From a virus, in IMG/VR virus record IMGVR_UViG_3300018080_000002, positions 64,001 to 128,000 of that record: 64,000 nucleotides of DNA; one strand, 5' to 3'. The position numbers were made by a program, and so were the translations under genes. The first letter of the stretch is position 1. Each line of letters opens with the position of its first letter. The notes beneath the pieces are model-generated. The model did no database searches. It was not told where the DNA came from and saw only the letters and a program-made list of their open reading frames with translations. This document shows positions 703 to 31,582 of this stretch, piece by piece.

Positions 703-776
703 TGCGGTGTGGAGAAGTGGCTATCTCAGGGGTCTCATAATCCCCAGATCGTTCGGTTCGAGTCCGACCACCGCAA
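703..776 (+). tRNA. tRNA with CAT anticodon (Met or Ile2)
   Basis: Acceptor TGCGGTG/CACCGCA, D-loop AGTGG, anticodon arm GGGGT-CTCATAA-TCCCC, T-loop TTCGAGT; no encoded CCA. Confidence 0.9.
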
Positions 777-804
777 CTAATTCCGTTATTTCAGAATAGT
801 AAAC

Positions 805-2400: not shown

Positions 2401-2925
2401 ATGATTGGAAAATCAAAAGGCTATAGTATGATTTATCACTCTGAAACTGCTAAAATAAGACATAGAATCGATAAATATTTGTTTGAAAAATCAGTGATTG
2501 ATATCGGATGTGGTCCAGACAAAGTTACTCTGGACGCTTTCGGTGTTGATGGTAGACCGCTAAATGGTATTGATTATGTGACGAAGGCGAGAAATGAGAT
2601 TTATCACTTGGATTCTATCCTTGATAAAAGGTTTGATGTTGTTTTTAGCTCTCATGTTCTTGAGCATCTGAAGAGGGATGTCCATGCTCTTAAATCCTGG
2701 TCTAATCTGTTGAATCCTGACGGAGTGATGTTGTTATATTTGCCTGATGATGACTGGTACGATAACGATACGAATCCAGAGCATGTTCAGAGGTATAAAT
2801 ATGTGGATTTTGTGAGGAGGTTCGACCAGTTTGGGGATATTGATTTTTTGGATGTAATAGAGCACTGGCCGGATGTTGGAAAAGATAGATATTCGTTTTT
2901 TGTGGCGTGTAAAAAAAGAATTTAG
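2401..2925 (+). CDS. Class I SAM-dependent methyltransferase
   Basis: IDIGCG, FDVVFSSHVLEH and LLNPDG motifs. Confidence 0.85.
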   Translation: MIGKSKGYSMIYHSETAKIRHRIDKYLFEKSVIDIGCGPDKVTLDAFGVDGRPLNGIDYVTKARNEIYHLDSILDKRFDVVFSSHVLEHLKRDVHALKSWSNLLNPDGVMLLYLPDDDWYDNDTNPEHVQRYKYVDFVRRFDQFGDIDFLDVIEHWPDVGKDRYSFFVACKKRI

Positions 2926-3206
2926 GTATCATCGTTCGGATATTCGATTCTAACGCATCCTGCGTTGCCCATACCGAAGTCGTTTAGAGGTTCATCTCCA
3001 TGAAATTCACCGATGATGTACCCTTCATAGTAAAGTATGTCGTCGTCGTCATACATGCGAAAATAAGATCCTTTTTTGATCTCATCTGGCTTTGCTGTAG
3101 AATCTCTCGGACCCTGCATCCCAACAGCATTACAATTACATGGTGGTTCCAGAGTCTTATCTGCGATATGATCTTTTGTGATGATCCAATCGTATTTTGA
3201 TTTCAT
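2922..3206 (-). CDS. Conserved phage hypothetical protein
   Basis: FRMYDDDDILYYEG...PLNDFG..NAGC..IEY motif; SD AGGAGA. Confidence 0.75.
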   Translation of the reverse strand: MKSKYDWIITKDHIADKTLEPPCNCNAVGMQGPRDSTAKPDEIKKGSYFRMYDDDDILYYEGYIIGEFHGDEPLNDFGMGNAGCVRIEYPNDDT

Positions 3207-3464
3207 TTATCTCTCCTTTTTTTCGTTAAAAATAATGGTTATAAAGGTCAGCATGTGTTTCCATCCAAATCCTTCCATTTGATATCGGTCCTTGGCATCG
3301 CATTTTTTACATATACGACCCCAAAAATCTTTACCGTTAACCGTTTTTACTGCTCGTTGAGACCCCTCCGTAGGTCGCCATTGCTGGCATTCAACGCATT
3401 TGATCTTGCTTGTATGGGCTGAGATTAGCTTTTCAATTTGTTGCTCATATGAATCTGTCATCAT
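3207..3464 (-). CDS. Zinc-finger hypothetical protein
   Basis: CVEC...CKKC; translationally coupled. Confidence 0.6.
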   Translation of the reverse strand: MMTDSYEQQIEKLISAHTSKIKCVECQQWRPTEGSQRAVKTVNGKDFWGRICKKCDAKDRYQMEGFGWKHMLTFITIIFNEKKER

Positions 3465-4063
3465 TCCCTCCCGCGAAAGCTTTGAGCAGGTTTATCACCA
3501 TAGTCAACGCCTGAGTTGCCTGATACCGTCAGAAAAAGAACATCGTATTTTTCGCTGTATTCAACTTTTTTAACGGTCATTTTATCTTCGTAAATAGTAT
3601 TGATCGTGATATCAACACCGTCATCTTCGCATCGAGCAGATCGCGGATAAACAGTGTGAGAAATATCAAAATCAATTTTAACATCGATTATATCGCCGAC
3701 TTTGATGTCTGGTCTATTGTCGTATGTTGACCATTCGTCAATTTCGATTCCTGAGATTTCATATTCGTACTCAGGAGCCTCCGCTGGTTCCCACCAGCTA
3801 CCCGATGATCCTGGTGTTGATCCGACTATTTCATGATCAGTTACTCCGACATTATAGTCTCTTAAATCATGTATGATTTTGTTATCCCAGTTGAGTAAGA
3901 GATAACTTTCCAAATCGGATATTTCTGGGTAAATATCTTGATAATCTTTCGCCAGTTTTTTTAACTTCGACCGTGTCATTGGCTCTGAGCCAAGTGTTTC
4001 GCTGGCTTTGATTTCGGATCGAAATTTGTCCAGAGCCTCTTGTTTAAGATTTGAGTTTTTCAT
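3461..4063 (-). CDS. Hypothetical protein
   Basis: 200-aa ORF with GGGAGA SD. Confidence 0.75.
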   Translation of the reverse strand: MKNSNLKQEALDKFRSEIKASETLGSEPMTRSKLKKLAKDYQDIYPEISDLESYLLLNWDNKIIHDLRDYNVGVTDHEIVGSTPGSSGSWWEPAEAPEYEYEISGIEIDEWSTYDNRPDIKVGDIIDVKIDFDISHTVYPRSARCEDDGVDITINTIYEDKMTVKKVEYSEKYDVLFLTVSGNSGVDYGDKPAQSFRGRE

Positions 4064-4102
4064 GAAGTTTCTCCCTTTTTGTTTTTAACGGTTTTTGCTG
4101 GT

Positions 4103-4549
4103 TTATTTAGATTTGGCTATTTCGATTTCACGCCAGATCAGACAATGTGATTGTCTCTGGCTGGTGTATTTGTCTTTGAGTTTCTGATAGCGTTTTTCTT
4201 CGTCTTTGAGTACTTCATCGCAGATACCTTTGTAAGAGATGCTTTTTTTGCCGAGTAATTCTTTGATTTTGAAATCTTCGATCTCTTCACCAGTGATCAA
4301 GCGTTTTAAGATGTTCATCTCGAAATCGGCTTTGTCGTTGAGCATTTCATGCAATTCGTTTTGGATTTTGCTTAATTTGAGTTCGAGTTTGTCGATGCCA
4401 GCTTGAGCCTTAAGTTTGGCTATTTTGGCTTCGATGTTAGCTTCCATTTTTGCTCGCTCGGTATTCAGATCTGCGATAGTGTCTACGAAAGCTTGGTACT
4501 TGTTAGTTTCTTGAAATTTGTCGACTTTTTTAACGTTTGATTTTTTCAT
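4103..4549 (-). CDS. Coiled-coil hypothetical protein
   Basis: AGGAG SD; heptad pattern. Confidence 0.75.
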   Translation of the reverse strand: MKKSNVKKVDKFQETNKYQAFVDTIADLNTERAKMEANIEAKIAKLKAQAGIDKLELKLSKIQNELHEMLNDKADFEMNILKRLITGEEIEDFKIKELLGKKSISYKGICDEVLKDEEKRYQKLKDKYTSQRQSHCLIWREIEIAKSK

Positions 4550-4617
4550 ACTTTGGCTCCTAGTTTGATGTGAATATTAAAAATTTCTTTAAAACCGTCC
4601 ATGGTTTAAAGTAGTTT

Positions 4618-5595
4618 CTATGGTTTTATGGGCTTTATGGGTTCAGGAAATATTCCAGCATTGGGGTCTAACTCATCAAGAAATACCTTCACTTTTTTCC
4701 CCTTCCTGGTGGTTTTCAATATGGCATGGCCGATCTCTCTTTCGAGTTTAGCCATCCGGTTGAAAGCTTCAGGGTTGGTTTTTCGGACGGTATTCCAGTA
4801 TCCTGCTCCACCTTTGGGACAGCCAACGCAGTTGTTGTTGCAGAACGAGTTATAATTTTCTGGAAGATCAATTCCCAGGCTCTTGAGTATCCAGAAACAA
4901 TTTGCTTTGGATAAGCCATTTTCAATTAGTGGAGTCTCGACTTTTCGGTCTGGATTTCGTGCTTGGAAGTCCTGGCATCTTTTACATTCTGAGTTGTCGT
5001 ATCCGAATATCTCTTTTTTGACGTTCGGGATGAGTGAAAAAATGAGGTCATTAACCTCTCGTTTTAATATTCTTGTGCAGGGACAGCCTTTAGGCGATTT
5101 GATGAATCGCACTTTTTTGATCACTTCCCAGTGATCATTAAATCCCTGCTCGTTTTTCACTGTATCGATAACGACTTTTTTTCCTGCAATTCTTGAGTAC
5201 AGTTTTTGACACTGTTGCATGAATCGAAGGTTGTCTGGCTTTGACGCTGTTCCTGGGTCTATGCAGAGTATTTTTACGTTGTCTGCGCCATATTTTTCTA
5301 TGGCAAGCTTGCAAGCGACTGCGGAGGTTGCGCCAGCAGAGAACCATGCTATGACTGTGGATGTAGTAATAGCAATGAGCAAGTTTTTCAGTTTTTGAAC
5401 TGATACTCCAAGGATTTTTGCGAATTGACGCAATCGATTCAATGGCGGTCTTTTTATCCAGCCAGTTTCGATCTGGCCGATAGTAGATGCAGAGATTCGA
5501 TCGTTCTCATCCATTTTTTCGCTGAACTCTTTTCGTGAAAGATTTAGTTTTTCCCTTTTCTCTCGAATAAATTGCCCTAATTTTGTGGTTTTCAT
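4618..5595 (-). CDS. XRE-family HTH fused to PAPS-reductase-like (PP-loop) domain
   Basis: LGQFIREKREKLNLSRKEF..IGQIETG HTH; AWFSAGATSAVA PP-loop; CTRILKR; NNNCVGCPKGGAGYW. Confidence 0.85.
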   Translation of the reverse strand: MKTTKLGQFIREKREKLNLSRKEFSEKMDENDRISASTIGQIETGWIKRPPLNRLRQFAKILGVSVQKLKNLLIAITTSTVIAWFSAGATSAVACKLAIEKYGADNVKILCIDPGTASKPDNLRFMQQCQKLYSRIAGKKVVIDTVKNEQGFNDHWEVIKKVRFIKSPKGCPCTRILKREVNDLIFSLIPNVKKEIFGYDNSECKRCQDFQARNPDRKVETPLIENGLSKANCFWILKSLGIDLPENYNSFCNNNCVGCPKGGAGYWNTVRKTNPEAFNRMAKLEREIGHAILKTTRKGKKVKVFLDELDPNAGIFPEPIKPIKP

Positions 5596-5612
5596 ATCCC
5601 TCTCCTATATTT

Positions 5613-5656
5613 GCGTTTCGTTTTAAAACTCATCAGTGGTCGAAATGACCAGACGC
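5613..5656 (-). ncRNA. Type III hammerhead ribozyme
   Basis: Minus strand GCGUC^UGGUC-AUUUC-GACCA-CUGAUGA-GUU-UUAA-AAC-GAAACGC: full core, GUC cleavage triplet, stems I, II and III. Confidence 0.88.
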
Positions 5657-6025
5657 GACAGAGTTTTAAAGACTCTGAAAACTCTCTGTCCCTGACATCA
5701 CATTTCAAATGGAATAAAGACGCTGTTCTGAAGTACCTATCGTCAAATCTGACTAGGATCTGACGCTGGCTTACCAGTCTCAAGGTGTGATAGGACTGAC
5801 GATGATCGACTAACCATTTGCCCGTAAGGCTGGCCTCGGTTATCACCGTGGGTGTTTTAAGCCCAAATGATTGAATCCTTATGTCCGGTTGTTCAGGATC
5901 GGATTCGTTGGGGTGTCGGCAAGTTAGACCATCCTTGTAACCCCTGGGGATCGTGCATCATCCCCCCGTCATGTGATCTCAAACCGCTGATCGTACTACC
6001 CTTATTTACTCACCCTCACTGGCTT
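5657..6025 (-). ncRNA. Candidate large structured ncRNA or leader, ~370 nt
   Basis: GC-richer than its surroundings, with many nested helices; no convincing ORF. Confidence 0.6.
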
Positions 6026-6030
6026 TCTTA

Positions 6031-6076
6031 CTAACGATCGTTAGTTCTAACGAACGTTAGTAATAACGATCGGCAT
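6031..6076. promoter_or_regulatory. Three tandem palindromic operator-like repeats with 16-bp period
   Basis: CTAACGATCGTTAG (perfect palindrome), CTAACGAACGTTAG, ATAACGATCGGCAT. Confidence 0.7.
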
Positions 6077-6193
6077 TTTTTTTAAAAACTTTAGTTTTCT
6101 TAAAATATTTTTAAAGTTGTTGTAATTATGGGGAAAATTTGGGGTGAATTTGGGGAATTTTTTCTGAGGCCAAATTTTTGCGGTCAGTTTTTG

Positions 6194-6202
6194 TGATATA
6201 AT
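6194..6202 (+). promoter_or_regulatory. Extended -10 promoter
   Basis: TGATATAAT ~30 nt upstream of the SNase start. Confidence 0.45.
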
Positions 6203-6231
6203 TGAGGAAAGAATTATCACAGGAGGGATGT

Positions 6232-6711
6232 ATGAGGTTGATATCTTTACTAATTTTATCAATTAGTACCCATTTTATAGTCCCCTCTGAAATATTTGGC
6301 TATGATTTCAATAAGGTAGAGTATATTCGGAATTACGATGGCGATACGCTCAAAGTCAATATCAAGGGGATTCATCCCTTGTTGGGTCGAAATATCAGCA
6401 TTAGACTGGCTGATATCGATACAGCAGAGATCGGGGGATCTAAAAAATGTGAGCAGGAAATGGCGAAATTAGCGCAATCCTGCGTTGAAAATCTCATCAT
6501 AGGGTCTGATAGGGTTGATATCAAAAACGCGCAGAGAGGCAAGTATTTCCGCGTTGTGGCCGATGTTTATCTTGAGGGGTTTCATCTCAATACTTTGCTG
6601 CTGAAATTGGGGTTAGCGGTCCACTATAGCGGGGGGAAAAGACCGGATGTAGACTGGTGTGAAATGTTGGTCAAGGCGAAGCGGAATCGAGCACTCAATC
6701 GGTGTTTATAG
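6232..6711 (+). CDS. Thermonuclease (SNase-like) with signal peptide
   Basis: YDGDTL, IRLADIDTAE and GKYFRVVA motifs; AGGAGG SD before ATG 6232. Confidence 0.9.
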   Translation: MRLISLLILSISTHFIVPSEIFGYDFNKVEYIRNYDGDTLKVNIKGIHPLLGRNISIRLADIDTAEIGGSKKCEQEMAKLAQSCVENLIIGSDRVDIKNAQRGKYFRVVADVYLEGFHLNTLLLKLGLAVHYSGGKRPDVDWCEMLVKAKRNRALNRCL

Positions 6712-7355: not shown

Positions 7356-8372
7356 ATGACGGATGATATCAAAAAAAGGATCTTCCCAGATGGTAAGAGG
7401 AATAGGAAGAAATTAGAGGATAAACAGGACGCTTATGCGAAAATACTGGAGGAACAGCATGAACGAGTGAAGGAGATGAGGCGAAATAAAAAGATTATTA
7501 AGGGTGCTGAGATTGAGGATTCTTTGAAGCGTAATAAGGCTCATCACTCTAAGAAAAAGCAGTCATCGAAAAAGCAAACGATGTTTGATTATGGCATTCG
7601 ACCTTCAAAGCTAGAGAAATTGAAATGTTTCCCAGAGGTCGTTAGCCTTATAAAAACGGGATATCCTGCAACTGCGATCGCAAAATATATCCGTGAGGAG
7701 AGGAAAGAGTATACTGATGTTTCATTTGATGCTGTATATAAAGCGGTTCGCACATTCATTCATAAGATGCCTCCTGGAGAGGTGATTCGAGAGCGATTGC
7801 CTGGTTATTACAACACGGTTATGAACTCTATCGAAGATCAGATTGATGGAGTGAAAGCCTTGAGCGACTTGTTTCACATTCAATTTGATAGGTTGATGAT
7901 CGATTATCAGAATGAGAAAAAGGTTAATAAGCTGATTGATAGCAATACCAAAAACGTCCAGGCTGCTACAGATATAGCTTATAAACTGGAGGAGGTTCGT
8001 TATCGATTAGTTGGTCATCATGCGCGATATGGTGTTAAAGTAGAGTCAGATAAGCCATCTACAGAGGATCAATTGAGGGATATTCGTGGTAAGATTTCTC
8101 AGAAATATGGTACTCGAATGGCTAATATTGCGTCTGATCCTATCCGCAGGAGAAAGCTCTTAAATATTTTTGAGAGGATCACGAATATCGGAGAGGATAG
8201 GTTTTTAGAGGTTATTAGTAAGTATAATGAGGATGATATTGAAACGATTGATGTAACGAATACATCTCAGGAGAACACAGATGACGAACGAACAGAGATC
8301 GTTGAAGGAAGTGGAGACAGCAACGGAGAGAACTCAGCAGAAAATGGAGGAGCTGAAACCGAGGCTACATAG
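7356..8372 (+). CDS. Putative terminase small subunit
   Basis: HTH-like segment, helical core, ETIDVT-type C-terminus; lies upstream of TerL. Confidence 0.45.
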   Translation: MTDDIKKRIFPDGKRNRKKLEDKQDAYAKILEEQHERVKEMRRNKKIIKGAEIEDSLKRNKAHHSKKKQSSKKQTMFDYGIRPSKLEKLKCFPEVVSLIKTGYPATAIAKYIREERKEYTDVSFDAVYKAVRTFIHKMPPGEVIRERLPGYYNTVMNSIEDQIDGVKALSDLFHIQFDRLMIDYQNEKKVNKLIDSNTKNVQAATDIAYKLEEVRYRLVGHHARYGVKVESDKPSTEDQLRDIRGKISQKYGTRMANIASDPIRRRKLLNIFERITNIGEDRFLEVISKYNEDDIETIDVTNTSQENTDDERTEIVEGSGDSNGENSAENGGAETEAT

Positions 8373-8625
8373 ATATTTCAAATTAATTGACGGTTTCAGT
8401 CATAATCCGTTGTTGAGATATGGACGAAATGACCCTTGTATATGTGGCAGTAATAAAAAGTTTAAGAAATGTTGTTTGCCAAAATTACCAAGGGGTGTCC
8501 CATCTCCGATTGCAGATGATATGAAAAATAAGAGTGTTGGTACTCAAGCGGCTATCCTGTTAGAATATATAAAAGAGCAACAAAAACATAAGGATAGCAA
8601 TAATGAGGACATCAAAGAGCAATGA
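8281..8625 (+). CDS. SEC-C motif protein
   Basis: GRNDPCICGSNKKFKKCC. Confidence 0.85.
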   Translation: MTNEQRSLKEVETATERTQQKMEELKPRLHRYFKLIDGFSHNPLLRYGRNDPCICGSNKKFKKCCLPKLPRGVPSPIADDMKNKSVGTQAAILLEYIKEQQKHKDSNNEDIKEQ

Positions 8626-8857
8626 TGATAAGCTATTCGTTATACGCCACTGGGACATTGATCACGATGATTCGTCGGTGGTTGCTAGAGGGTATCTCGC
8701 TGATGATGAGAGCCGTACAATCCGCATAGTAGAAATTCCTGTCATTTCGTTTCGTGTTGTTTGTAATCATAAAATTGCTAGTGCTGGTAGTCAGTTAGTG
8801 ACTCGATTGCGTTCTGGCCACTTCAAGCTTTATGATATGAATAAGGTGGAGGGCTAG
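8603..8857 (+). CDS. Hypothetical protein
   Basis: Overlapping ORF in the operon. Confidence 0.5.
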   Translation: MRTSKSNDDKLFVIRHWDIDHDDSSVVARGYLADDESRTIRIVEIPVISFRVVCNHKIASAGSQLVTRLRSGHFKLYDMNKVEG

Positions 8858-10575: not shown

Positions 10576-10714
10576 TAAACTGTGGTGGAATATCAAGTAT
10601 TGGTTCAAGTGTGTTTTTGTAATTCCTGATGATAACTCAGAGGTGATGAGGAAATCAGGTGAAGCTATGGAATTTCTGAAAAGCCTTGAGGCTAAAGAGA
10701 GGGGTAAATCATGA
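10568..10714 (+). CDS. Small hypothetical protein (48 aa)
   Basis: Overlaps both neighbouring genes; GAGG SD. Confidence 0.5.
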   Translation: MISKLWWNIKYWFKCVFVIPDDNSEVMRKSGEAMEFLKSLEAKERGKS

Positions 10715-11607
10715 AATTGATGTTAGCTATTTTGTTTTTGGTGATATCCTGTAGTCATCAGAGCGAAGGGATGTTGACTGATCCGGCAGAGTTTGTGCCA
10801 ACACCGCCAGGAGATTTTGGCAGTTTTTATCTATCAGGTCCAGATCTGCATGGGATTCGCGGCGGTCGGTTCGATGTGGATAAGTGTTGTCCGAAGTGCA
10901 AAAAATGCAAAGACGATGAATTGAAAGAGGAGTTGAAAGAGGCTGAAGAGGAGATCAAACGCCTTGAGGACATGCTTGAGAAAAATGATGAGTTTCTGCG
11001 AAAGGCCGAAAAAGACTTAGAGGATGCGGAGGAGGATCTGGAAAAGGCTGAAAAAGATCTGGAGAAATGCCAGGACAAAGAGGAATGTCCTAAGTGTAAG
11101 AAATGCGAAAAGTGCGAAAAGTGCGAAAAGTGCGAAAAGTGTAAAGAGTGTGAGAAATGTGAAGAGTGTCCTCCAGAGAAAGAATGTCCTGATAAGGACT
11201 CGGATAAGGATGATGATAAGAACATCCCCCCACCAGAGGAGACTGCTGATGGAGCATTGAAAGATCTCTTTGAAGAGATGAATAAGATCAGATCGAAATA
11301 TGGAGCGGGACCATTGGTTTTAAATCCCAGGCTAAATTGTGCGGCAAAAAAACATAGTGAGGATATTGGCAGAACGAGGCGTTGCTCTCATACAGGTTCC
11401 GATGGTTCGAGTCCTTGGAAACGGGCTGAGAGATGTGGGATCAAAGCATATGGTGAGATAGTAGCGTGTGGTCAAGGGACTCCGAAAGCTGCGATAGATG
11501 CTTGGTTTAAGAGTTCTGGCCATAGAAATCTAATGCTCAATAAGAAATTTAAAAAGGTCGGGGTTGGTATGAAAAACAATTACTGGACTGCGATCTTTGC
11601 ATATTAA
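10711..11607 (+). CDS. Lipoprotein with coiled coil, Cys repeats and CAP/SCP domain
   Basis: Lipobox VISC; (CEK)n; LNCAAKKHSEDI...SHTGSDGS...GEIVA...W.KSSGHR.LML. Confidence 0.85.
   Translation: MKLMLAILFLVISCSHQSEGMLTDPAEFVPTPPGDFGSFYLSGPDLHGIRGGRFDVDKCCPKCKKCKDDELKEELKEAEEEIKRLEDMLEKNDEFLRKAEKDLEDAEEDLEKAEKDLEKCQDKEECPKCKKCEKCEKCEKCEKCKECEKCEECPPEKECPDKDSDKDDDKNIPPPEETADGALKDLFEEMNKIRSKYGAGPLVLNPRLNCAAKKHSEDIGRTRRCSHTGSDGSSPWKRAERCGIKAYGEIVACGQGTPKAAIDAWFKSSGHRNLMLNKKFKKVGVGMKNNYWTAIFAY
11086..11169 (+). repeat. 9-bp tandem repeat (TGCGAAAAG) encoding CxxCxxC
   Basis: Directly visible. Confidence 0.9.
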
Positions 11608-11618
11608 GGGGGTGAGTT

Positions 11619-13571
11619 ATGAAAAAGATATTATTTTTGATTTTTATTTTGGTGTTGGGGTGTGCTGCATCTTGGAAAATCACAGAGCAGACAGCGACAA
11701 GGATTGTGATGGAGCTGGTGGAAGATCCAGTTGATCCTACTCCGATACCTCCTGTCGAAGATCCTGTGGAGGTTCCTGCTGATGGTAATGCTTGGTTAAT
11801 GGGGTATTATGTCGGGTATCAGAGAGGTCTATATCCACCGGAAAAGGTAGATTTTACCAGTATCACGCATTTGATGGTTGGTAGAGTTGTGCCAAAGGCT
11901 GACGGGACATTAACTACGGATCTGGATATCGATGATACGAATGGACCAGCTTTGGCGAAATCGCTGGCGGGTTTGGCGCATAAAAATTTAAGAAAAGCCA
12001 TTCTTATGATTGGTGGTGATGGTGCTCACTCTGGTTGGGTTGGGTCAGCCAGTTCAGCAAACAGATCTAAGTTTGTGGATAACCTGTTATCGGTTATGGA
12101 TGCCTGGGGATATGATGGTTTAGATTTGGATTGGGAGCCTATTCTGGATTATGATAAGCCAGACTTGTTAGCATTGATAAAAGAGCTTAGGGCAAAAAGA
12201 CCGAATATGATTTTGACGATCCCTGTCGGTTGGGTTAATGCCAACCTTAAAAATGCTGATCCATGGTTGAAAAATATAGAACCATATGTTGATCGCATAA
12301 ACGTTATGTCATATTTGATGGGTGGTCCTTGGAGCGGTTGGCTGAGTTGGCATTCATCGGCATTGTCCGGTCATGGTGCTCAATATCCTAGTTCTATCGA
12401 GGTATCTGCTGAAGGATATCGATCTGTGGGGATACCAGCGGGGAAAATAGGTATTGGAGTGGGTTTTTTTGGCGTATGTTGGAAAGGTGTGACTGGTCCT
12501 AAACAATCTACATCTGGAGCATCGATAGTCGCCAGTGACAATACGATGAGCTATCGAAATATCCTTGCAAGTTATTTGGTTGAATCTGCATATAAATGGG
12601 ATTCAACAGCTTATGTTCCATATCTTTCATATCCGAACGGATACGGTCCTCTGGGATGTAATTTTATCTCGGCAGAGGATGAATCATCAGTATCACGCAA
12701 AGGGGAATATGTTCGAGTAAATGGTCTTGGAGGAGCTATTGTTTGGACTGTTAATCAGGGGTATTTGCCAGATAAGGATGATAATCCACTGTTGGTTTCA
12801 TTAGCAAACGGGATGTTTGTCGATAGCCAGCCTTTACCGATTCCTGTTCCGACTCCTGATGTTGGACAGGATATTAGCGGGAATATTAGTGGCATTTTTG
12901 AGGTTAGCAAATCTCCATATAATGTTGTTGGTGATGTCCATGTACCTAAAGGAAAAACTTTGATTATCGAGCCAGGAGTTAAGCTGATTTTTAAGGGTCA
13001 TTATAAAATGACGGTTGAAGGTATTTTGGTTTCTAAGGGAACATCTCAATTGCCTATTATTTTCACGGCAGATGATACTGCTGAGGGGTGGAATGGTTTG
13101 AGATGGCAAACTGGTACTGGGCATGATACGACAGGTTTAAATATTATTAAACATACTGTCTTTGAATATGGGAACAAAACTAAAGTGGTTATTAACGGTT
13201 CATATAAAGAAAATCGTGCTGGAGCGTTATTTGTATATGGAGTAGAAAATATTCAGATTGAGGACAATGTTTTTAGATATAACAGATCAAACGACAAATG
13301 CGGTGCAGTTATGATGCTGGCCATAGACGCTCCTATTTCTTTTAAAAATAATTCTTTTGAGGGTAACGAATCTTATCAGCATGGGGGAGCATTATGTTTT
13401 ACCCATGGCAAGTATCAAGATTTGTACGGCGGGTCATTTCAGAATAATAAATCGGCAAAAAATTATGGTGCAATTTATGTTTATGATACGAAGGTGACTC
13501 TTCATAATGTAGGGTTTTCAGGGAACATACCGAATAATTATAATACGAATGCAGTTAGTATTGCTGATTGA
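11619..13571 (+). CDS. GH18 chitinase-like lipoprotein with C-terminal beta-helix
   Basis: Lipobox VLGC; GYDGLDLDWE catalytic motif; INVMSY; GGAIVW; beta-helix repeats. Confidence 0.85.
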   Translation: MKKILFLIFILVLGCAASWKITEQTATRIVMELVEDPVDPTPIPPVEDPVEVPADGNAWLMGYYVGYQRGLYPPEKVDFTSITHLMVGRVVPKADGTLTTDLDIDDTNGPALAKSLAGLAHKNLRKAILMIGGDGAHSGWVGSASSANRSKFVDNLLSVMDAWGYDGLDLDWEPILDYDKPDLLALIKELRAKRPNMILTIPVGWVNANLKNADPWLKNIEPYVDRINVMSYLMGGPWSGWLSWHSSALSGHGAQYPSSIEVSAEGYRSVGIPAGKIGIGVGFFGVCWKGVTGPKQSTSGASIVASDNTMSYRNILASYLVESAYKWDSTAYVPYLSYPNGYGPLGCNFISAEDESSVSRKGEYVRVNGLGGAIVWTVNQGYLPDKDDNPLLVSLANGMFVDSQPLPIPVPTPDVGQDISGNISGIFEVSKSPYNVVGDVHVPKGKTLIIEPGVKLIFKGHYKMTVEGILVSKGTSQLPIIFTADDTAEGWNGLRWQTGTGHDTTGLNIIKHTVFEYGNKTKVVINGSYKENRAGALFVYGVENIQIEDNVFRYNRSNDKCGAVMMLAIDAPISFKNNSFEGNESYQHGGALCFTHGKYQDLYGGSFQNNKSAKNYGAIYVYDTKVTLHNVGFSGNIPNNYNTNAVSIAD

Positions 13572-13787: not shown

Positions 13788-14210
13788 ATGAGTGTAAAAG
13801 TTTTGATCCTTAAAGGATTACCTGGTAGCGGTAAGAGTGCTTATGCAAAAGAACTAATGGATAAGGAAAAGGATTGGGTTAGGGTCAGCAGGGACAATCT
13901 CAGGGATATGCTTTATTTTAAGGATTTTCACTGGGCAAAAGAGAAAATGCTGGTCAGGATCATGAAAGAAATAATTGTTGATCTTGTGAGAATCGGCAAA
14001 AATGTCATTGTTGATAATACTCATTTAGATCCAAGTCATATAGAAATTGTTCATGATGCTTTGGTTTATAGTGGTGTGGATACAGATGTCGAAATTAAGT
14101 TTATTGACACACCCTTAGATGAATGTATAGCTAGGGATAGTTTGAGATCTGATTCTGTTGGTGAAACGGTTATTAGAAAAATGTACGAGAAATGGCTTGA
14201 AGAGAAATAA
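13788..14210 (+). CDS. Polynucleotide 5'-kinase-like P-loop protein (PseT N-domain)
   Basis: GLPGSGKS, SRDNLR, VIVDNTH, ECIARD..R. Confidence 0.85.
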   Translation: MSVKVLILKGLPGSGKSAYAKELMDKEKDWVRVSRDNLRDMLYFKDFHWAKEKMLVRIMKEIIVDLVRIGKNVIVDNTHLDPSHIEIVHDALVYSGVDTDVEIKFIDTPLDECIARDSLRSDSVGETVIRKMYEKWLEEK

Positions 14211-14790: not shown

Positions 14791-14991
14791 ATTTCGAGTT
14801 GTATATATTGTGATGGTGGAGATGTAATTGTCTCGACTAGCACTCGTAGGGGTGCGTATAAAGGAATTGAGGTTGATCATAAATATGAATACTTTGAGTG
14901 TTTGTCGTGTGGTAAAACGTTTCAAACGATAAAACAGAAAGCTCAAGAGATTGCTGAAATACAGGAACAGATTAGGAAGAAAGATCGATGA
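14791..14991 (+). CDS. YgiT/MqsA-type zinc-finger protein with ATT start, not in ORF track
   Basis: AAGGAGG-ttatt-ATT; CIYCDGG...YKG.....YFECLSCGKTF; stop overlaps next ATG (ATGA). Confidence 0.7.
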   Translation: MSSCIYCDGGDVIVSTSTRRGAYKGIEVDHKYEYFECLSCGKTFQTIKQKAQEIAEIQEQIRKKDR

Positions 14992-15797
14992 ATATTATAG
15001 GTGACGTGCATGGTGAGTATGATGCTTTAGTAAAGCTGGCAAAGAAAATGCCAGACGATGAGTTTATATCAGTAGGAGACATGATTGATAGAGGTGCAAA
15101 ATCCAAAGAGGTCATGGATTTTTTCAGAAAAAACGGCAGAGCGGTCCTGGGCAACCATGAACATCAGTTATTGGATCTTTGGAATAAGGGTGATTATTAT
15201 GATTGTTTGATTTGGGGTGCGTTTAACGGTGGTTTTAAGACGCTTACAAGCATGATTTCATTTGTGGATGACATAAAGAGAGTGGTGTCCTGGAATAATG
15301 AGGTTTTATTTACAGTTAAGTATGGAAAGATGTTTGTCGAAGAGGGAATATTGGATGATATGATTGAGGGGTTTTCTAAAGATATTTGTGATCTTGTAAA
15401 GGAGATGATCCCAAAAGATTACATTGATTGGTTGCAATCGTTGCCATTGTATATCGATGAGGATGGTGTTTTCATTTCTCATGCTGCAAAGAATCCAGAG
15501 CTACAATTAGAGGATGTCTGCGATCTCAGGTATGGTCCTAACAATGAATATGCGATAGAGGATTTACCTCATAAATTAAAGCCTAAAGGATCGTATAACG
15601 ATAATATATTGTGGAATACTGGAAACCCTAGACGGATGAAAGACAAATATCAGGTGCATGGTCATAAGAGACAGACGAGTCCTTGGAAATATATGGATCA
15701 GTTTGGAGAGTTTGGCATCAATATCGATACCGTCCCTCAGATGCTTACAGGAATCCATCTGCCATCAAAAAAAGTGTATCAGGAGGAGATTGGATGA
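14988..15797 (+). CDS. Metallophosphoesterase (Ser/Thr phosphatase/ApaH-like)
   Basis: GDVHG, GDMIDRG, GNHE, SHA, VHGH, NIDT. Confidence 0.9.
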   Translation: MNIIGDVHGEYDALVKLAKKMPDDEFISVGDMIDRGAKSKEVMDFFRKNGRAVLGNHEHQLLDLWNKGDYYDCLIWGAFNGGFKTLTSMISFVDDIKRVVSWNNEVLFTVKYGKMFVEEGILDDMIEGFSKDICDLVKEMIPKDYIDWLQSLPLYIDEDGVFISHAAKNPELQLEDVCDLRYGPNNEYAIEDLPHKLKPKGSYNDNILWNTGNPRRMKDKYQVHGHKRQTSPWKYMDQFGEFGINIDTVPQMLTGIHLPSKKVYQEEIG

Positions 15798-15855: not shown

Positions 15856-16878
15856 ATGGAAATCATTAAGAAACGTTTGAAAATGATTGAACAGGCTTTA
15901 TATGAGGGTGGTATGCCCAAAGTGCCTAAAGAGATGATAAAGCCTGTAATGGACTGGGTAAAATCTGTTCATAAGTTTGGAGTTAGTAAAACAAAGACTT
16001 TTAGGTTCCCGAAGGGAATTAAGATTTATGGAAAAGAGACAGGACAGCCGATTGAGATAAAAGTCATATTGAAACCGTTCCAAACGAGAGAGGGTTCGTG
16101 GAGTGTATATGGCGGAAAGTTACAGTTAAATTCTGAGGCATCGATCGAAGAAATTGAGACGACTTTGTATCATGAACTTATTCATTTCATGCAGTCCTGG
16201 GATAAGAGGAATATCGGGGTTCCAAAGTCTAGGTCTGTTATAGTAAAGGGTGCGAAGTTCAAGAGTGAGAGAGAACGCGGATATATTTCATGGTTAGCAA
16301 ATCCGTATGAGTATAAGACGTTTTTGGCTGATAAGATAAACGGTTTGAGTAAGCATATTTTAAGTCTGGCAAGTAGGGATCAAGGTGTTGATGTTCAAGA
16401 CATGATAAGAGGTGTCGTAAAGAATTTTATGGACAAGAATGAGAATTATAAAAGACTTGATTCTAAAACTAGACGAGTATTTGCTACTGACTTAACGGTA
16501 GGCTTGAACAAAGATCCAAGGATCAAGAATCTTATCAATAGGCGAAAAGGTCAGCAGGATGTTGATGTTGATTCGATCAAAAAATCTCTTAGATCTGTAG
16601 CTAAGAGGACAGGTTTAGATATTTTTATGCCGAAAGCAGGAAAAGAGTTAAGCCAAGGTGGTGAGGAGAAACAATTATGGATTCAAGGCGATAATCCGAA
16701 GGACGTTGTTCATGTATTTAACTTGCTACGAAAGAGATACGGCACTGAGCTTGGTTTGGATTATATGGTGGATAAGGGAAAGCCAACCGTCAGGGTTTTC
16801 TATGATCAGAGTGAGTTAAGAAAATTTAGAGAGATGGTTAAATTTTTAGGAAAAATAGATAGGGTAGGTAAATTGTAA
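15856..16878 (+). CDS. HExxH metallopeptidase-like protein, putative head-internal
   Basis: LYHELIH, Y..NPYE; leader ending ALYE. Confidence 0.6.
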   Translation: MEIIKKRLKMIEQALYEGGMPKVPKEMIKPVMDWVKSVHKFGVSKTKTFRFPKGIKIYGKETGQPIEIKVILKPFQTREGSWSVYGGKLQLNSEASIEEIETTLYHELIHFMQSWDKRNIGVPKSRSVIVKGAKFKSERERGYISWLANPYEYKTFLADKINGLSKHILSLASRDQGVDVQDMIRGVVKNFMDKNENYKRLDSKTRRVFATDLTVGLNKDPRIKNLINRRKGQQDVDVDSIKKSLRSVAKRTGLDIFMPKAGKELSQGGEEKQLWIQGDNPKDVVHVFNLLRKRYGTELGLDYMVDKGKPTVRVFYDQSELRKFREMVKFLGKIDRVGKL

Positions 16879-17654
16879 TGAAGGTAAAGTTTCTTGGCGT
16901 AGGATCTGCGTTTTATCCAGATCTAGGTAATACGAGTATTTTGATCAACGATAGGGTGCTTATTGATTGCGGTTCAACAGTACCAGCCGAATTGATGAGA
17001 TTGAAAAAAATTGAAGAGATCACTGACATCATCATTACTCATCTCCATTCCGATCATGTTGGTGGTTTAGAATTACTTGGTCAGATTTATTATTATGCTT
17101 TAAAAAAGAGACCTCGTTTATGGCTTACAGAAACCATGAGGAGGGATCTTTGGGAAAAGGTGCTGAGAGGTGGTTTAGAGTATTCTGTGTCACCAGTCGG
17201 CTCTATCCTCAAATGTGAGCTAGAGACTTATTTTAACTTAGAGTGGGGGATTACTCCGAAACCTGGTGTTGTTGGTTGTTATGAAGTCAATACTCCAGAC
17301 GTCAGCATTATGTTAGAGTTGACGGAGCATGTCCCAGGAATGGAATCATATTCGATGATCACAGATGACGGGGTAATTTATTCCTCAGACATCAAACATT
17401 GTCTGTATGATCAGGGGTATGCGATCGAAGAGTTTGACGGATTGAAAGCAATATTTCATGATTGTAGTCTGGTTGATTTGGGGGTTCAAAACGTCCATCC
17501 GTATATCGAGAGTTTGTTAGAGGGTATTCCAGAGGAATATCGGGGAATTACGTGGTTCGTACATTATGGGAATCAATATAAGGACTGGGAAGAAAAGATT
17601 CAGCCTTTAGGGTTTCCAGGGTTTGTTAGAAAAGGCCAGGATTTTATTTTTTGA
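16878..17654 (+). CDS. MBL-fold hydrolase, Apyc1 (anti-Pycsar)-like
   Basis: LGVGSAF, LIDCG, THLHSDHVGGLE, LW..LRGGL, YSSD, FHDC, VH, HY. Confidence 0.8.
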   Translation: MKVKFLGVGSAFYPDLGNTSILINDRVLIDCGSTVPAELMRLKKIEEITDIIITHLHSDHVGGLELLGQIYYYALKKRPRLWLTETMRRDLWEKVLRGGLEYSVSPVGSILKCELETYFNLEWGITPKPGVVGCYEVNTPDVSIMLELTEHVPGMESYSMITDDGVIYSSDIKHCLYDQGYAIEEFDGLKAIFHDCSLVDLGVQNVHPYIESLLEGIPEEYRGITWFVHYGNQYKDWEEKIQPLGFPGFVRKGQDFIF

Positions 17655-19983: not shown

Positions 19984-22932
19984 ATGGCGATGGCTAAAGA
20001 TAATGGTTTGCTAAACTTTTTACGGCATGTATTTGTCGATGAGTATAATATTCCTTCCGAATTGTCTCCTAACACCAGACAGGTGATGATGCCTGGGACT
20101 GGTCATAGCAGTTATTTTCAGAATATCGATACAAATTTTGGGTTAACAAGTTCTTGGCTGAAGGATTATCTCACCATAGAAAACGATCTGATTTCCAGAT
20201 ACGTTGACTATGAGGATATGGATGACTTGCCAGAGCTTTCTGCATCTTTAGATATATATTCGGACGATGCAACACAGCCAGACGGTATTACGGGAAAGAC
20301 TGTTAGGGTTGATTGCCAGGACCAAACCATATGTCAGATTCTTGAAGATCTTTACGAAAAGAATTTAAGGATTGACGAAGAGGTTTGGGAAATGGCTCGA
20401 ACCTTATGTAAGTACGGCAATGACTTTGAGGAAATTGTTATCAAGGATGGTGAGGGTGTTATAGACCTCAACTTTTTACCTCCACCGACAGTGAGGCGCA
20501 TAGAGGATACTGAAGGATCTTTGCTAGGATTTGTTCAGGATTACACGGCGAATTTTAAGATCACGACAGAGGAATTTCTGGAGCGTATTAAGAATCGGGA
20601 AGAGGAAGAGAAATATGTAGAGGAGCAGATGGAAAGAGGCTCTTTACCAGTCAAGAGTTTCGAGAACTGGGAAGTGGTACACATGCGTCTACGATCCAAG
20701 CAAAGACGATCTATGTATGGCTATGGGGTGTTGGATTCTGTTAGATGGATCGTAAAACGGTTGATGCTGATCGAAGACAGTATGCTCGTATATCGTCTAT
20801 GTTTACATGGTGATAGTAACGTTTGGACGGATAATGGGTATAAAAAAATTAAGGATATTGTAAAAGATGATGTTGTTTATTGTTATAACAATAAGGGTAT
20901 TTTAAACAAAACTAAGGTTGTTTATAAAAAACATAATGGTAAGGATACTATCTATAAAGTATCAAGTAGGCGAAGGCAGATTTTTGCCAATAAAACGCAT
21001 CCTATTTTAGTGGAGTCGGTTGAGCATAATGGCAGTGGGAATAGGAATACAATTAAACTTGAGTATGTAGAGGTTCAGAATATTGAGCCTAATATGTATA
21101 AGTTTATCATGCCGAAAGTAGAGTCAGGTGAAGATATAATATTGAATTTTCCTGATGTTTCTAAGAGAGCTTTTATCAAGTCTGATTTCTTAGGGAAAAT
21201 AGAATTAAAAAAAGGTCCACGTTTTTTAATGGAAAAATGCGGAGTTAATAGTCAGAAAATCAAACCATTCCTTAATGGTGATATTTCTCTTACAGAACGA
21301 GCAGCACTCTCATTAATGTCAGAAAATGGCTATGATGAGAGTGTTTTGGATATATACGATGATTGGGGAAGTATTGATGTTTCTGGTTTACCGAAAACTG
21401 TGGATGAAGATTTTTCCAGATGGTTTGGATTTATGATAGGTGATGGGTTTTTATCCGATCATACTCATAAAAGTGGATATATTGCTAGAAATACTGTCGG
21501 TTTTGCCTGTGGGAATAAGTTTGAAGTGAATAATAAGTATAAGGACTTATTTAAAAAGTATGTAGGCAATGTAAAAGAAAATTTTAAAGGTGATAGGCTG
21601 AATAGTTATTGTATTTGTTCGAGACAATTTTATGAGTTTATGATTTTGAATGGGTATATAAAGGGTGCTCATAATAAAAGAATACCTGAGTGGGTTTTTA
21701 GGAGTGAACTAAAAATTAGAAAGGCTTTTATTTTTGGTCTTATTGATGCTGATGGGATGGTTAGAGATAATGGAAAAGATGTTTCTATTGAGATGTGTAA
21801 TAAAGATCTAGTAAATGATCTTAGAATTTTGTGCATGCAATCTGGTTACAGTGTAGGAAAAGAGATCAAGAGACGAGAAAGGTCTGGTGGTCATATAATA
21901 GAAGGCGATCATCGTGCTCCTGAGACTGTATCATATTGTTTGAATTTTAGTTTCAATGAATCTGAGGATAGAGAAAACATTTTAAATGTAGAGATTGTGG
22001 GCATAGACGATATTTATGATATTGGAGTGGAGGCTGAAGAACATAATTTTGTTTCCGATGGTGTTGTCGTACATAATACTAGAGCACCAGAGCGTTTGGC
22101 TTTTTACGTAGATGTTGGTGACATTCCTCCAAACGAAGCTTTAGGGTACGTCAAAAAGGTCAAGAACGAGTATAAAAAGAAAAAGTGGGTTGATCCTAAT
22201 ACGGGAAAACTCGATATGTCTTACAATCCTTTGAGCGCGGATGAAGATTTTTTTGTCCCAGTAAGAGGGGATAAGAGGTCGGCCAGCATTGAGAGTATAG
22301 GTGGAGCGAACTACCAGCCGACAGACGATGTTAATTACTTCAAAGATAAGTTATATTCAGGACTTAAGATTCCAAGAGACTTTTTAAACTATACTGAGGG
22401 TGGAGCTTCCAAGGCAAACTTATCCACAGAGGATATGCGGTTTGCCCGATCTATTCTTCGCATCCAGCGAGAGATCAGAAACGGTTTGAAAAAGGTTGGC
22501 AGGGTGCATTTGGCATCATTCGGCATACAGCCAGATATTGTCGAGTGGGAAGTTATGCTCAATCCTCCATCGAGTATATTTGAGTTAGCTCAGATGGAGG
22601 TAAGGAATGCTCAGTTGGACCTAGCAGATAGATATAGGGCTTTTGCCAGCCAGTATTGGATTATGCGCGAAATACTGCATATGACGGATGAGGAGATTGA
22701 ATCTATCAATACTGAGCGTAAAAAGGAAACCTTGGATAAAACCAGTTATCCTGAGTTTGAGGCTAGGGATTATCCCAGAAATTTCTTCAATGGAAATCGA
22801 GAGGCTGAAAAAATTCTTTCTGAGAATTGGGAAAAAATGATGACGCAGAGTCCATATCTCAAAAAGAGATTTGATGAATTACGAGGATTGATTTCTGATA
22901 TGAGAATCCATTTACAGAAACGGAGAAAATAA
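19984..22932 (+). CDS. Portal protein (T4 gp20-like) containing an intein
   Basis: LMLIEDSMLVYRL|TRAPER.AFYVDVG...EDFFVPVRG...LKIP. Confidence 0.93.
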   Translation: MAMAKDNGLLNFLRHVFVDEYNIPSELSPNTRQVMMPGTGHSSYFQNIDTNFGLTSSWLKDYLTIENDLISRYVDYEDMDDLPELSASLDIYSDDATQPDGITGKTVRVDCQDQTICQILEDLYEKNLRIDEEVWEMARTLCKYGNDFEEIVIKDGEGVIDLNFLPPPTVRRIEDTEGSLLGFVQDYTANFKITTEEFLERIKNREEEEKYVEEQMERGSLPVKSFENWEVVHMRLRSKQRRSMYGYGVLDSVRWIVKRLMLIEDSMLVYRLCLHGDSNVWTDNGYKKIKDIVKDDVVYCYNNKGILNKTKVVYKKHNGKDTIYKVSSRRRQIFANKTHPILVESVEHNGSGNRNTIKLEYVEVQNIEPNMYKFIMPKVESGEDIILNFPDVSKRAFIKSDFLGKIELKKGPRFLMEKCGVNSQKIKPFLNGDISLTERAALSLMSENGYDESVLDIYDDWGSIDVSGLPKTVDEDFSRWFGFMIGDGFLSDHTHKSGYIARNTVGFACGNKFEVNNKYKDLFKKYVGNVKENFKGDRLNSYCICSRQFYEFMILNGYIKGAHNKRIPEWVFRSELKIRKAFIFGLIDADGMVRDNGKDVSIEMCNKDLVNDLRILCMQSGYSVGKEIKRRERSGGHIIEGDHRAPETVSYCLNFSFNESEDRENILNVEIVGIDDIYDIGVEAEEHNFVSDGVVVHNTRAPERLAFYVDVGDIPPNEALGYVKKVKNEYKKKKWVDPNTGKLDMSYNPLSADEDFFVPVRGDKRSASIESIGGANYQPTDDVNYFKDKLYSGLKIPRDFLNYTEGGASKANLSTEDMRFARSILRIQREIRNGLKKVGRVHLASFGIQPDIVEWEVMLNPPSSIFELAQMEVRNAQLDLADRYRAFASQYWIMREILHMTDEEIESINTERKKETLDKTSYPEFEARDYPRNFFNGNREAEKILSENWEKMMTQSPYLKKRFDELRGLISDMRIHLQKRRK
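20800..22077 (+). mobile_element. Intein with LAGLIDADG homing endonuclease (426 aa)
   Basis: CLHGDS N-terminus, HPIL block B, FGFMIGDG and FGLIDADG motifs, VVHN|T C-terminus. Confidence 0.95.
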
Positions 22933-31015: not shown

Positions 31016-31582
31016 ATGTCGAATATTTTAAAAGAATTTGAAAGTTTTGGTTTAATAAACAAAAAAAAGACTACTCAAGAGGCTTACATTGATCCTGAGC
31101 AAGAGCAGGAACAGGACGGTGCAGAACCAGAGGGTCCAGAGGATGATGAGCCTAGAGCAGATGATATTGGGCAAGACTCTGAAGAGGAGGGTATGATCCA
31201 GGTTCCAGAGGAAACCAAAGAAAAGGTCATGGAGCTGCATAAGCTGGCTGGTGAAGTCTATGGATTGATGGCTGGTGAGCCTGAGACGGGTCAGGAAACA
31301 GAGGAATCATATGATGCCCAACCAGACGACGAAACTCCTCCTGAAGCTGTTGGCGATCCTGACGATACTCCTGAAGATGATAAGACCGTTGATGCTACTA
31401 TTGATGAGCTTATATCGACAAGTTGGGGTGGTGATAACGAGAGTCAGGGGAAAGCGATAGAGCTGCTTAAGGGGTTGGCTTTTTCTGATGATCCGAAAGC
31501 GAATGCGTTTATGATGAAACTGGATGAGTTGACATCCGGTATGGACGCTAGTGCGTTAGGTGAGAGTAAAAAGAAAGCTTAA
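31016..31582 (+). CDS. Acidic hypothetical protein, putative head-internal
   Basis: GGAGG SD; E/D-rich. Confidence 0.75.
   Translation: MSNILKEFESFGLINKKKTTQEAYIDPEQEQEQDGAEPEGPEDDEPRADDIGQDSEEEGMIQVPEETKEKVMELHKLAGEVYGLMAGEPETGQETEESYDAQPDDETPPEAVGDPDDTPEDDKTVDATIDELISTSWGGDNESQGKAIELLKGLAFSDDPKANAFMMKLDELTSGMDASALGESKKKA

Follow-up and report, generated by a model that had tools for sequence, protein, structure and literature searches.

A candidate type III hammerhead ribozyme directly ahead of an HTH/PAPS-reductase-like gene in an uncultured T4-like myovirus

Genetic setting of the motif

The stretch of DNA analysed (the window, 64,000 nucleotides) covers bases 64001-128000 of a virus record that is 157,357 bp long and carries direct terminal repeats. 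Among the products encoded are a Gp23-type major head protein, a T4-type portal, a prohead protease and a tail sheath, and the source is an uncultured T4-like myovirus. MCP identity to the nearest cultured phage is <38%.

The motif is located in a 606-nt gap between two divergent genes, one predicting a staphylococcal-nuclease-like protein and the other a 325-aa protein that combines an XRE-type HTH with a PAPS-reductase-like PP-loop domain (Table 1). The HTH covers residues 10-69 of the 325-aa protein (Pfam HTH_3, 1.7e-11). The protein also matches PHROG 424 (2e-35), its homologues carry PF01507, and its N-terminus aligns with that of its closest homologue, P0002 (54% identity). The gene is the first of a leftward block of four. 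As there is no gene upstream of the motif on the minus strand, the HTH/PAPS-reductase-like gene can be transcribed only through the hammerhead.

Table 1. Features in and around the gap that contains the hammerhead motif, in order of position and with the motif resolved into its parts
Feature	Position	Strand	Basis or remark
Four-gene leftward block, headed by the HTH/PAPS-reductase-like gene	2922-5595	-	
Downstream gene, 325 aa, XRE-type HTH and PAPS-reductase-like PP-loop domain	4618-5595	-	
Shine-Dalgarno AGGAGAGGG	5606-5598	-	begins 6 nt past the hammerhead
Type III hammerhead ribozyme motif, stem III 5′ strand to 3′ strand	5613-5656	-	reading; RF00008
Core GAAA (5619-5616; G12-A15.1) and stem III 3′ strand CGC (5615-5613)	5613-5619	-	
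Stem II GUU (5629-5627)/AAC (5622-5620), 3 bp, loop UUAA	5620-5629	-	
Core CUGAUGA (C3-A9)	5630-5636	-	reading; Rfam alignment
Stem I hairpin UGGUC/GACCA, 5 bp, loop AUUUC	5637-5651	-	reading; Rfam alignment
Predicted cleavage site, C17 (5652)/U1.1 (5651), GUC triplet	5651-5652	-	motif position; Rfam alignment
Hairpin abutting the hammerhead 5′ side, GACAGAG (5690-5684)/CUCUGUC (5663-5657)	5657-5690	-	-7.6 kcal/mol
Noncoding stretch, hammerhead to divergent nuclease gene, 545 nt	5657-6201	-	
UUUAAAACUC, arm of competing helix	5661-5670	-	inverted repeat I3
Staphylococcal-nuclease-like gene, right of gap	6202-6711	+	

No credible ORF was found in the part of the gap between the motif and the nuclease gene (5657-6201). 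Neither a sigma-70-like promoter nor a terminator was detected in 5400-6400, and the T4 late-promoter motif TATAAATA was not enriched. Three palindromic units phased at 16 bp, namely CTAACGATCGTTAG, CTAACGAACGTTAG and a degenerate third, occupy 6031-6078 and are unique in the window. These may mark a control region and are possible operator sites for the downstream gene's HTH protein. Transcription probably starts near them, and the leader released would then be ~370-420 nt; the noncoding stretch preceding the operon is put at ~370-540 nt overall.

A number of other features were recorded in the window. The only tRNA, tRNA-Met (CAU), is at its left end (703-777, plus strand). A gene predicting a CAP (cysteine-rich secretory protein) domain protein (10711-11607, plus strand) adjoins one for a 650-aa protein (11619-13571, plus strand) composed of a GH18 chitinase-like domain and a beta-helix, an uncommon pair of cargo genes to find immediately before the structural module. 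Separate genes predict an AAA_33 P-loop kinase (13788-14210, plus strand, 140 aa) and a calcineurin-like phosphoesterase (14988-15797, plus strand, 269 aa), which is compatible with, but not proof of, an RNA-end healing pair. The 258-aa metallo-beta-lactamase-fold protein encoded at 16878-17654 (plus strand) matches the Pfam family Anti-Pycsar Apyc1 with 81 bits against a cut-off of 50, so that a counter-defence enzyme degrading cyclic nucleotides seems a better description of it than RNase Z. The portal ORF (19984-22932, plus strand) predicts 982 aa, compared with 563 aa in a phage with 82% MCP identity (L111, 4580-6271). Its match to the portal PHROG is confined to residues 697-921, and residues 265-364 match an anaerobic ribonucleotide reductase PHROG, so the ORF could contain an intein or an inserted domain.

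The hammerhead motif and its match to known models

The minus strand from 5656 to 5613 reads GCGU-C / UGGUC-AUUUC-GACCA / CUGAUGA / GUU-UUAA-AAC / GAAA-CGC. An earlier note on this DNA had described a canonical type III hammerhead with a complete core, which would be cleaved between 5652 and 5651 at 56 nt before the start codon, and direct reading bears out the letters, all of the coordinates and the predicted site. Stems I, II and III are of 5, 3 and 4 bp, respectively, with no mismatches. In stem III, ACGC pairs with GCGU, the 5′ strand being G5656-C-G-U5653. Stem II includes a single G-C pair (10.1-11.1). In the Rfam alignment stem II gains a fourth pair, U-A, closed by a 2-nt loop, which is sterically unlikely.

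The motif passes the acceptance rules given for hammerheads in PMC3088659. The conserved core is present as CUGAUGA (5636-5630) and GAA (5619-5617). The A15.1-U16.1 pair is formed by A5616 and U5653, and position 17 is C5652 and hence not G. Both of the standard pairs adjacent to the core are found, U1.1-A2.1 as U5651-A5637 and G10.1-C11.1 as G5629-C5620. The topology is that of type III, with loops closing stems I and II and stem III open, and the alignment to the type III model is full-length.

A cut after C5652 would leave a 5′ untranslated region (UTR) of 56 nt. The hammerhead ends 17 nt ahead of the ATG (5595-5593), and the Shine-Dalgarno sequence lies between the two. On the other side, the hairpin at 5690-5657 ends 0-2 nt before stem III, though 22% of random 45-mers from the locus are at least as stable. 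Hammerhead cleavage yields a 2′,3′-cyclic phosphate and a 5′-OH, and fast cleavage at physiological Mg2+ needs a tertiary contact or pseudoknot between loop I and loop II. Between loop I (AUUUC) and loop II (UUAA) of this motif, only 2-3 A-U pairs can be drawn.

The Hammerhead_3 model of Rfam 15 (RF00008, clan CL00010) aligns to 5659-5610 over its full length (1-54) with 42.3 bits. The E value was 1.2e-7 in a 1-kb search, 7.8e-6 when the whole 64-kb window was compared with all 4227 families, and 4.4e-9 when RF00008 alone was used against the 157-kb genome. No second match was found in the genome, and the hammerhead is a single copy. The comparison with Rfam models that the earlier note had proposed thus gave a full-length and significant alignment, but the score is ~6 bits short of the gathering threshold of 48.5 bits, which is a database cut-off and not a structural feature, and a default scan of the window reports only the tRNA. 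In its full catalytic core, A15.1-U16.1 pair, GUC site, looped stems I and II and open stem III this copy resembles RF00008, whereas it differs in the sub-threshold score, in the 3-bp stem II with a 4-nt loop, and in being AU-rich with a predicted fold of only -8.4 kcal/mol. No other ribozyme family was detected in the window at E < 0.1 among the 4227 Rfam families. A type II descriptor match at ~31447-31494 (plus strand) had no Rfam support at E < 0.1 and was taken as chance.

The motif pattern alone is unspecific. A loose descriptor constructed here, requiring the core and three helices with loops of up to ~60 nt, gave 8 type III matches when run on 150 random sequences of 64 kb, and one of the 8 was no worse than 5/3/4 bp. 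Within the window, CUGAUGA followed by GAAA within 6-30 nt occurs 8 times, and only this copy has the helices. What speaks against chance is therefore the covariance-model score, together with the compactness of 44 nt and the position, which is intergenic, on the strand that encodes the next gene and directly before the ribosome-binding site (RBS). Taken together, these features identify the element as a genuine type III hammerhead motif, as judged from sequence, in a familiar position.

Other phage hammerheads and the search for relatives

Hammerheads in phages have been described previously. In prophages they flank genes, and in haloviruses HF1 and HF2 one is found 13 nt before the start codon of a helicase gene; it was proposed that the ribozymes process long transcripts, and their function was left open (Perreault et al. 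2011, PMC3088659). A 2019 review found the roles of bacterial hammerheads to be largely elusive (PMC6765202). When IMG/VR was scanned by pattern for type III hammerheads sharing the junction sequences of this copy, 22 loci were identified, 20 of them distinct. Of the 20 phage loci whose downstream sequence could be read, 16 have the ribozyme 1-34 nt ahead of a start codon, and the genes that follow are mutually unrelated. The same layout before a start codon was seen for a hammerhead in one CPR genome contig. The location just upstream of the RBS, to which the earlier note drew attention, is therefore that of most of the phage hammerheads sampled.

A stable hairpin ending 0-5 nt before the ribozyme is present in 15 of 19 other phage hammerheads. 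These hairpins are mostly within the most stable 10%, and that of the window is weaker. In several of the loci a noncoding gap of 270-640 nt follows a divergent gene, as in the window, though for most of the other phage hammerheads the upstream sequence consists of the previous gene and the hairpin. Several of the sampled ribozymes have a loop I-loop II pseudoknot (loop I starts UGAU), which this copy lacks.

The element shares with the hammerheads of Perreault et al. 2011 a phage setting, a location a few nt before the RBS or start codon, and tolerance of weak stems. It differs from them in being unclustered, as the lone hammerhead of a 157-kb T4-like genome, and in that it follows a long leader heading a divergent operon rather than lying between two cistrons. 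Four loci of the present sample (L012, L019, L024 and L025) do have clusters, in which 3-6 hammerheads, some of type II and some of type III, are spread over a few kb; L024 has two of type III and four of type II. Multiple ribozymes flanking genes or short blocks were not seen here, with one hammerhead in 157 kb.

Two further sets of loci were recorded during the scan. In L021, a type III hammerhead (7841-7894, plus strand) is 23 nt before an ArdC-like anti-restriction gene (7914-8777, plus strand) that predicts ArdcN and zincin-like peptidase domains, echoing the ardA association in PMC3088659. Near-identical hammerheads are found in L006 (369-420, minus strand), L022 (938-989, plus strand) and L023 (10-61, minus strand), and their loops I and II are able to pair (CCC/GGG, ACC/GGU and GCC/GGU). 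The gene behind the ribozyme in L006 and in L022 begins MRILSFGGGVDSS, a PP-loop-like motif. The L006 and L023 contigs end within ~370 nt downstream of the ribozyme; L023, probably a third case of the SFGGGVDSS protein, stops 12 nt past it. A link between hammerheads and PAPS-reductase-like proteins via the SFGGGVDSS protein of L006 and L022 was rejected, as this protein has no Pfam match and gives E = 0.086 against the protein of the window.

Relatives carrying the element were not found. A blastn search of 4600-6300 against phages returned no match. The locus of P0002, which also has the HTH fusion, contains no hammerhead and shows no synteny or shared neighbours with the window; the P0002 gene is preceded by a hairpin and then an AT-rich stretch. 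The strict descriptor found no hammerhead in 80 viral loci encoding PAPS-reductase-like homologues, and the relaxed descriptor found in them only long, loop-heavy matches of a type also seen throughout the window. Two metagenome pattern scans gave no match and three unrelated hammerheads, respectively, but no relative, and a scan of genome contigs gave only the unrelated CPR hammerhead. A search of viral contigs for kin phages using an MCP peptide pattern was also negative. The phage with 82% MCP identity was reached via two Logan contigs, and in the part that could be reached the region upstream of its structural genes is not syntenic with the window. On these sequence comparisons, in which no hammerhead-bearing relative was found, the element appears to be in a variable part of the genome.

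Fold stability and possible roles of the element

The predicted hammerhead fold is the weakest of 21 phage hammerheads compared (-8.4 kcal/mol, versus -12.6 to -35.3 kcal/mol for the others) and is not the MFE structure even when the motif is folded alone, though nearest-neighbour energies omit the tertiary pairs of the hammerhead core. With 60 nt of native upstream sequence, the best active fold is 5.6 kcal/mol above the MFE, the largest gap compared, the range for the other phage hammerheads being 0-3.9 kcal/mol. The predicted ensemble share is 0.03 for the motif alone and between 1e-3 and 3e-5 with native flanks. This thermodynamic marginality was missed by the earlier note. With so weak a fold, cutting may be incomplete and depend on context.

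Several helices compete with the active fold. UUUAAAACUC (5670-5661) is perfectly complementary over 10 bp to GAGUUUUAAA (5631-5622), and the two arms bracket stem I. This helix, which is present in both the MFE and the centroid folds, sequesters G8 and A9 together with the 5′ strand of stem II and so gives an inactive fold. The inverted repeat (5622-5631/5661-5670) overlaps the palindromic stem II sequence GTTTTAAAAC. Further predicted competitors are GUUUU/GAAAC, and 5699-5695 with the cleavage-site strand.

The reading preferred here, to which a probability of roughly 0.6 is given, is that the element is a true type III hammerhead, one of the phage and bacterial hairpin-hammerhead-RBS kind, and would cut a long 5′ leader off the mRNA of the leftward operon. 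The layout is observed, and from it we infer cleavage, its extent and its effects on stability and translation. Transcription would begin within the noncoding stretch 5657-6201. The upstream hairpin (5690-5657) and stem I would fold first, and once stems II and III are complete the ribozyme would cut after C5652 while transcription continues. The leader would be freed with a 3′ hairpin and a 2′,3′-cyclic phosphate, and the mRNA of the HTH/PAPS-reductase-like gene and of the three genes behind it would acquire a fixed 56-nt 5′ UTR. Its 5′ nucleotide, carrying a 5′-OH, would be paired in the stem I hairpin, with the RBS 6 nt past the ribozyme. The expected outcome is a RiboJ-like effect, in which neither the leader nor the site of transcription start would any longer affect expression and stability.

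RiboJ-type hammerheads normalise 5′ UTRs and raise mRNA stability (PMC7536230). The proposed effect here is similar in that a hammerhead between a variable leader and the RBS would give all transcripts one shared, hairpin-first 5′ UTR. However, RiboJ is an engineered form of the hammerhead of a satellite RNA, and its added hairpin, of 23 nt, is downstream, whereas here the extra hairpin is upstream, and the comparison concerns function only and not ancestry. The glmS ribozyme likewise acts from a 5′ UTR, where self-cleavage determines what becomes of the mRNA that follows, and its cleavage leads on to degradation by cellular RNases (PMC6765202). It differs in having another fold, in being cofactor-dependent and in that cleavage lowers expression, and nothing at the present locus hints at a ligand.

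Two proposals for the fate of the new 5′ end, made in the earlier note, are not supported. Protection of a 5′-OH end from RNase E is E. coli biology, so the argument depends on the host, and no cultured phage exceeds 38% MCP identity. In Firmicutes, the 5′-OH product of glmS is degraded and not protected. The gene at 13788, put forward as a PNK-like kinase that could act on this end, predicts only the generic 140-aa AAA_33 P-loop kinase, which has no phosphatase domain and is encoded 8 kb away on the other strand. Such a role would also contradict the proposed protection, because phosphorylation makes a 5′-OH end more like an RNase E substrate.

The motif may instead descend from a hammerhead and be dead or nearly so in the native transcript, either as a relic or as a recently acquired and poorly adapted copy. 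This is unlikely but carries some weight, given that the fold is the weakest of the set and not the MFE, that its predicted ensemble share is small, that several competing helices are predicted, and that it is a single copy without conserved relatives. In addition, riboJ57, an AU-rich RiboJ variant of low stability, is a hammerhead insulator that fails in vivo (PMC7536230). On the other hand, all ~13 core positions and the three core-adjacent pairs are intact, which is unexpected under drift. The omission of core tertiary pairs from the energies weakens the thermodynamic argument, local helices are favoured first when RNA folds during transcription, and among natural active hammerheads stem II often has only two bp and weak stems III are common (PMC3088659).

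A conditional switch was also considered, and is improbable. In this case 5670-5661 would pair either with 5687-5680, leaving the ribozyme free, or with 5631-5622, sequestering the core in an off state, and some factor or the speed of transcription would set how much leader is removed and hence the amount of HTH/PAPS-reductase-like protein. The perfect 10-bp inverted repeat around stem I, the two mutually exclusive partners of 5670-5661 and the 5.6 kcal/mol advantage of the inactive fold are in its favour. However, the penalty from shuffled upstream sequences averages 3.8 kcal/mol and attains 5.6 kcal/mol in 16% of trials, so the competition is what a weak ribozyme meets in any context, and the competing helix is not supported as a designed switch (p = 0.16 versus shuffled flanks). 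No ligand- or protein-binding element was identified, and no relatives were found in which the alternative helix might be conserved. Allosteric hammerheads are not known to occur naturally.

It is more doubtful still that the upstream RNA is the main product, i.e. a stable phage non-coding RNA with an exact 3′ end, with any effect on the mRNA being secondary. The 545 noncoding nt before the ribozyme, a GC content that rises to 0.48-0.55 in 5750-5999, and the hairpin that abuts the cleavage site are consistent with such an RNA. Against it, the fold z-score of the leader is -0.89 on the minus strand (+0.41 on the plus strand), no Rfam family matches the leader at E < 0.1, and blastn found no leader-like DNA in phage or plasmid collections or elsewhere in the phage's own genome. 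No credible small ORF was found either, and the leader is supported neither as a structured RNA nor as a coding region. Most other phage hammerheads simply follow the previous gene and a hairpin, and a special upstream RNA is therefore not needed to account for the arrangement. The earlier claim that cleavage releases an upstream structured RNA holds to the extent that the sequence is noncoding as far as the divergent gene and a cut would detach it as a leader, but the same results do not support the description of it as structured.

Elements of these two readings could be combined, in that the ribozyme may be deliberately marginal and conditional, gated by the competing helix or the leader, and/or the hairpin-capped leader RNA with its cyclic-phosphate end may be functional. 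This appears improbable, but if true it would make the element a conditional hammerhead of natural origin, controlling how much of the HTH/PAPS-reductase-like regulator is expressed. A chance match, evolutionarily unrelated to hammerheads, is highly improbable: the loose descriptor matches random 64-kb sequence about once per 20-150 windows, the Rfam score is under the gathering threshold and homologues of the element are absent, but against this stand the E values for the window and the genome, a compact motif built from the commonest variants (GUC, CUGAUGA and G10.1-C11.1), and a location on the right strand directly ahead of an RBS as in other phage hammerheads.

The element adds one example to the arrangement of a hammerhead before a phage gene that has been known since 2011, and for which the role is still unproven. 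Compact AU-rich copies such as this one are overlooked when the Rfam gathering threshold is applied. If the preferred reading of leader removal by an active hammerhead is correct, the location in a leader rather than between two genes, and in a genome with no other hammerhead, makes the effect on one mRNA measurable without the complication of cistron separation. As this copy is near the lower limit of helix stability, it can also show how weak natural hammerheads may be and yet work.
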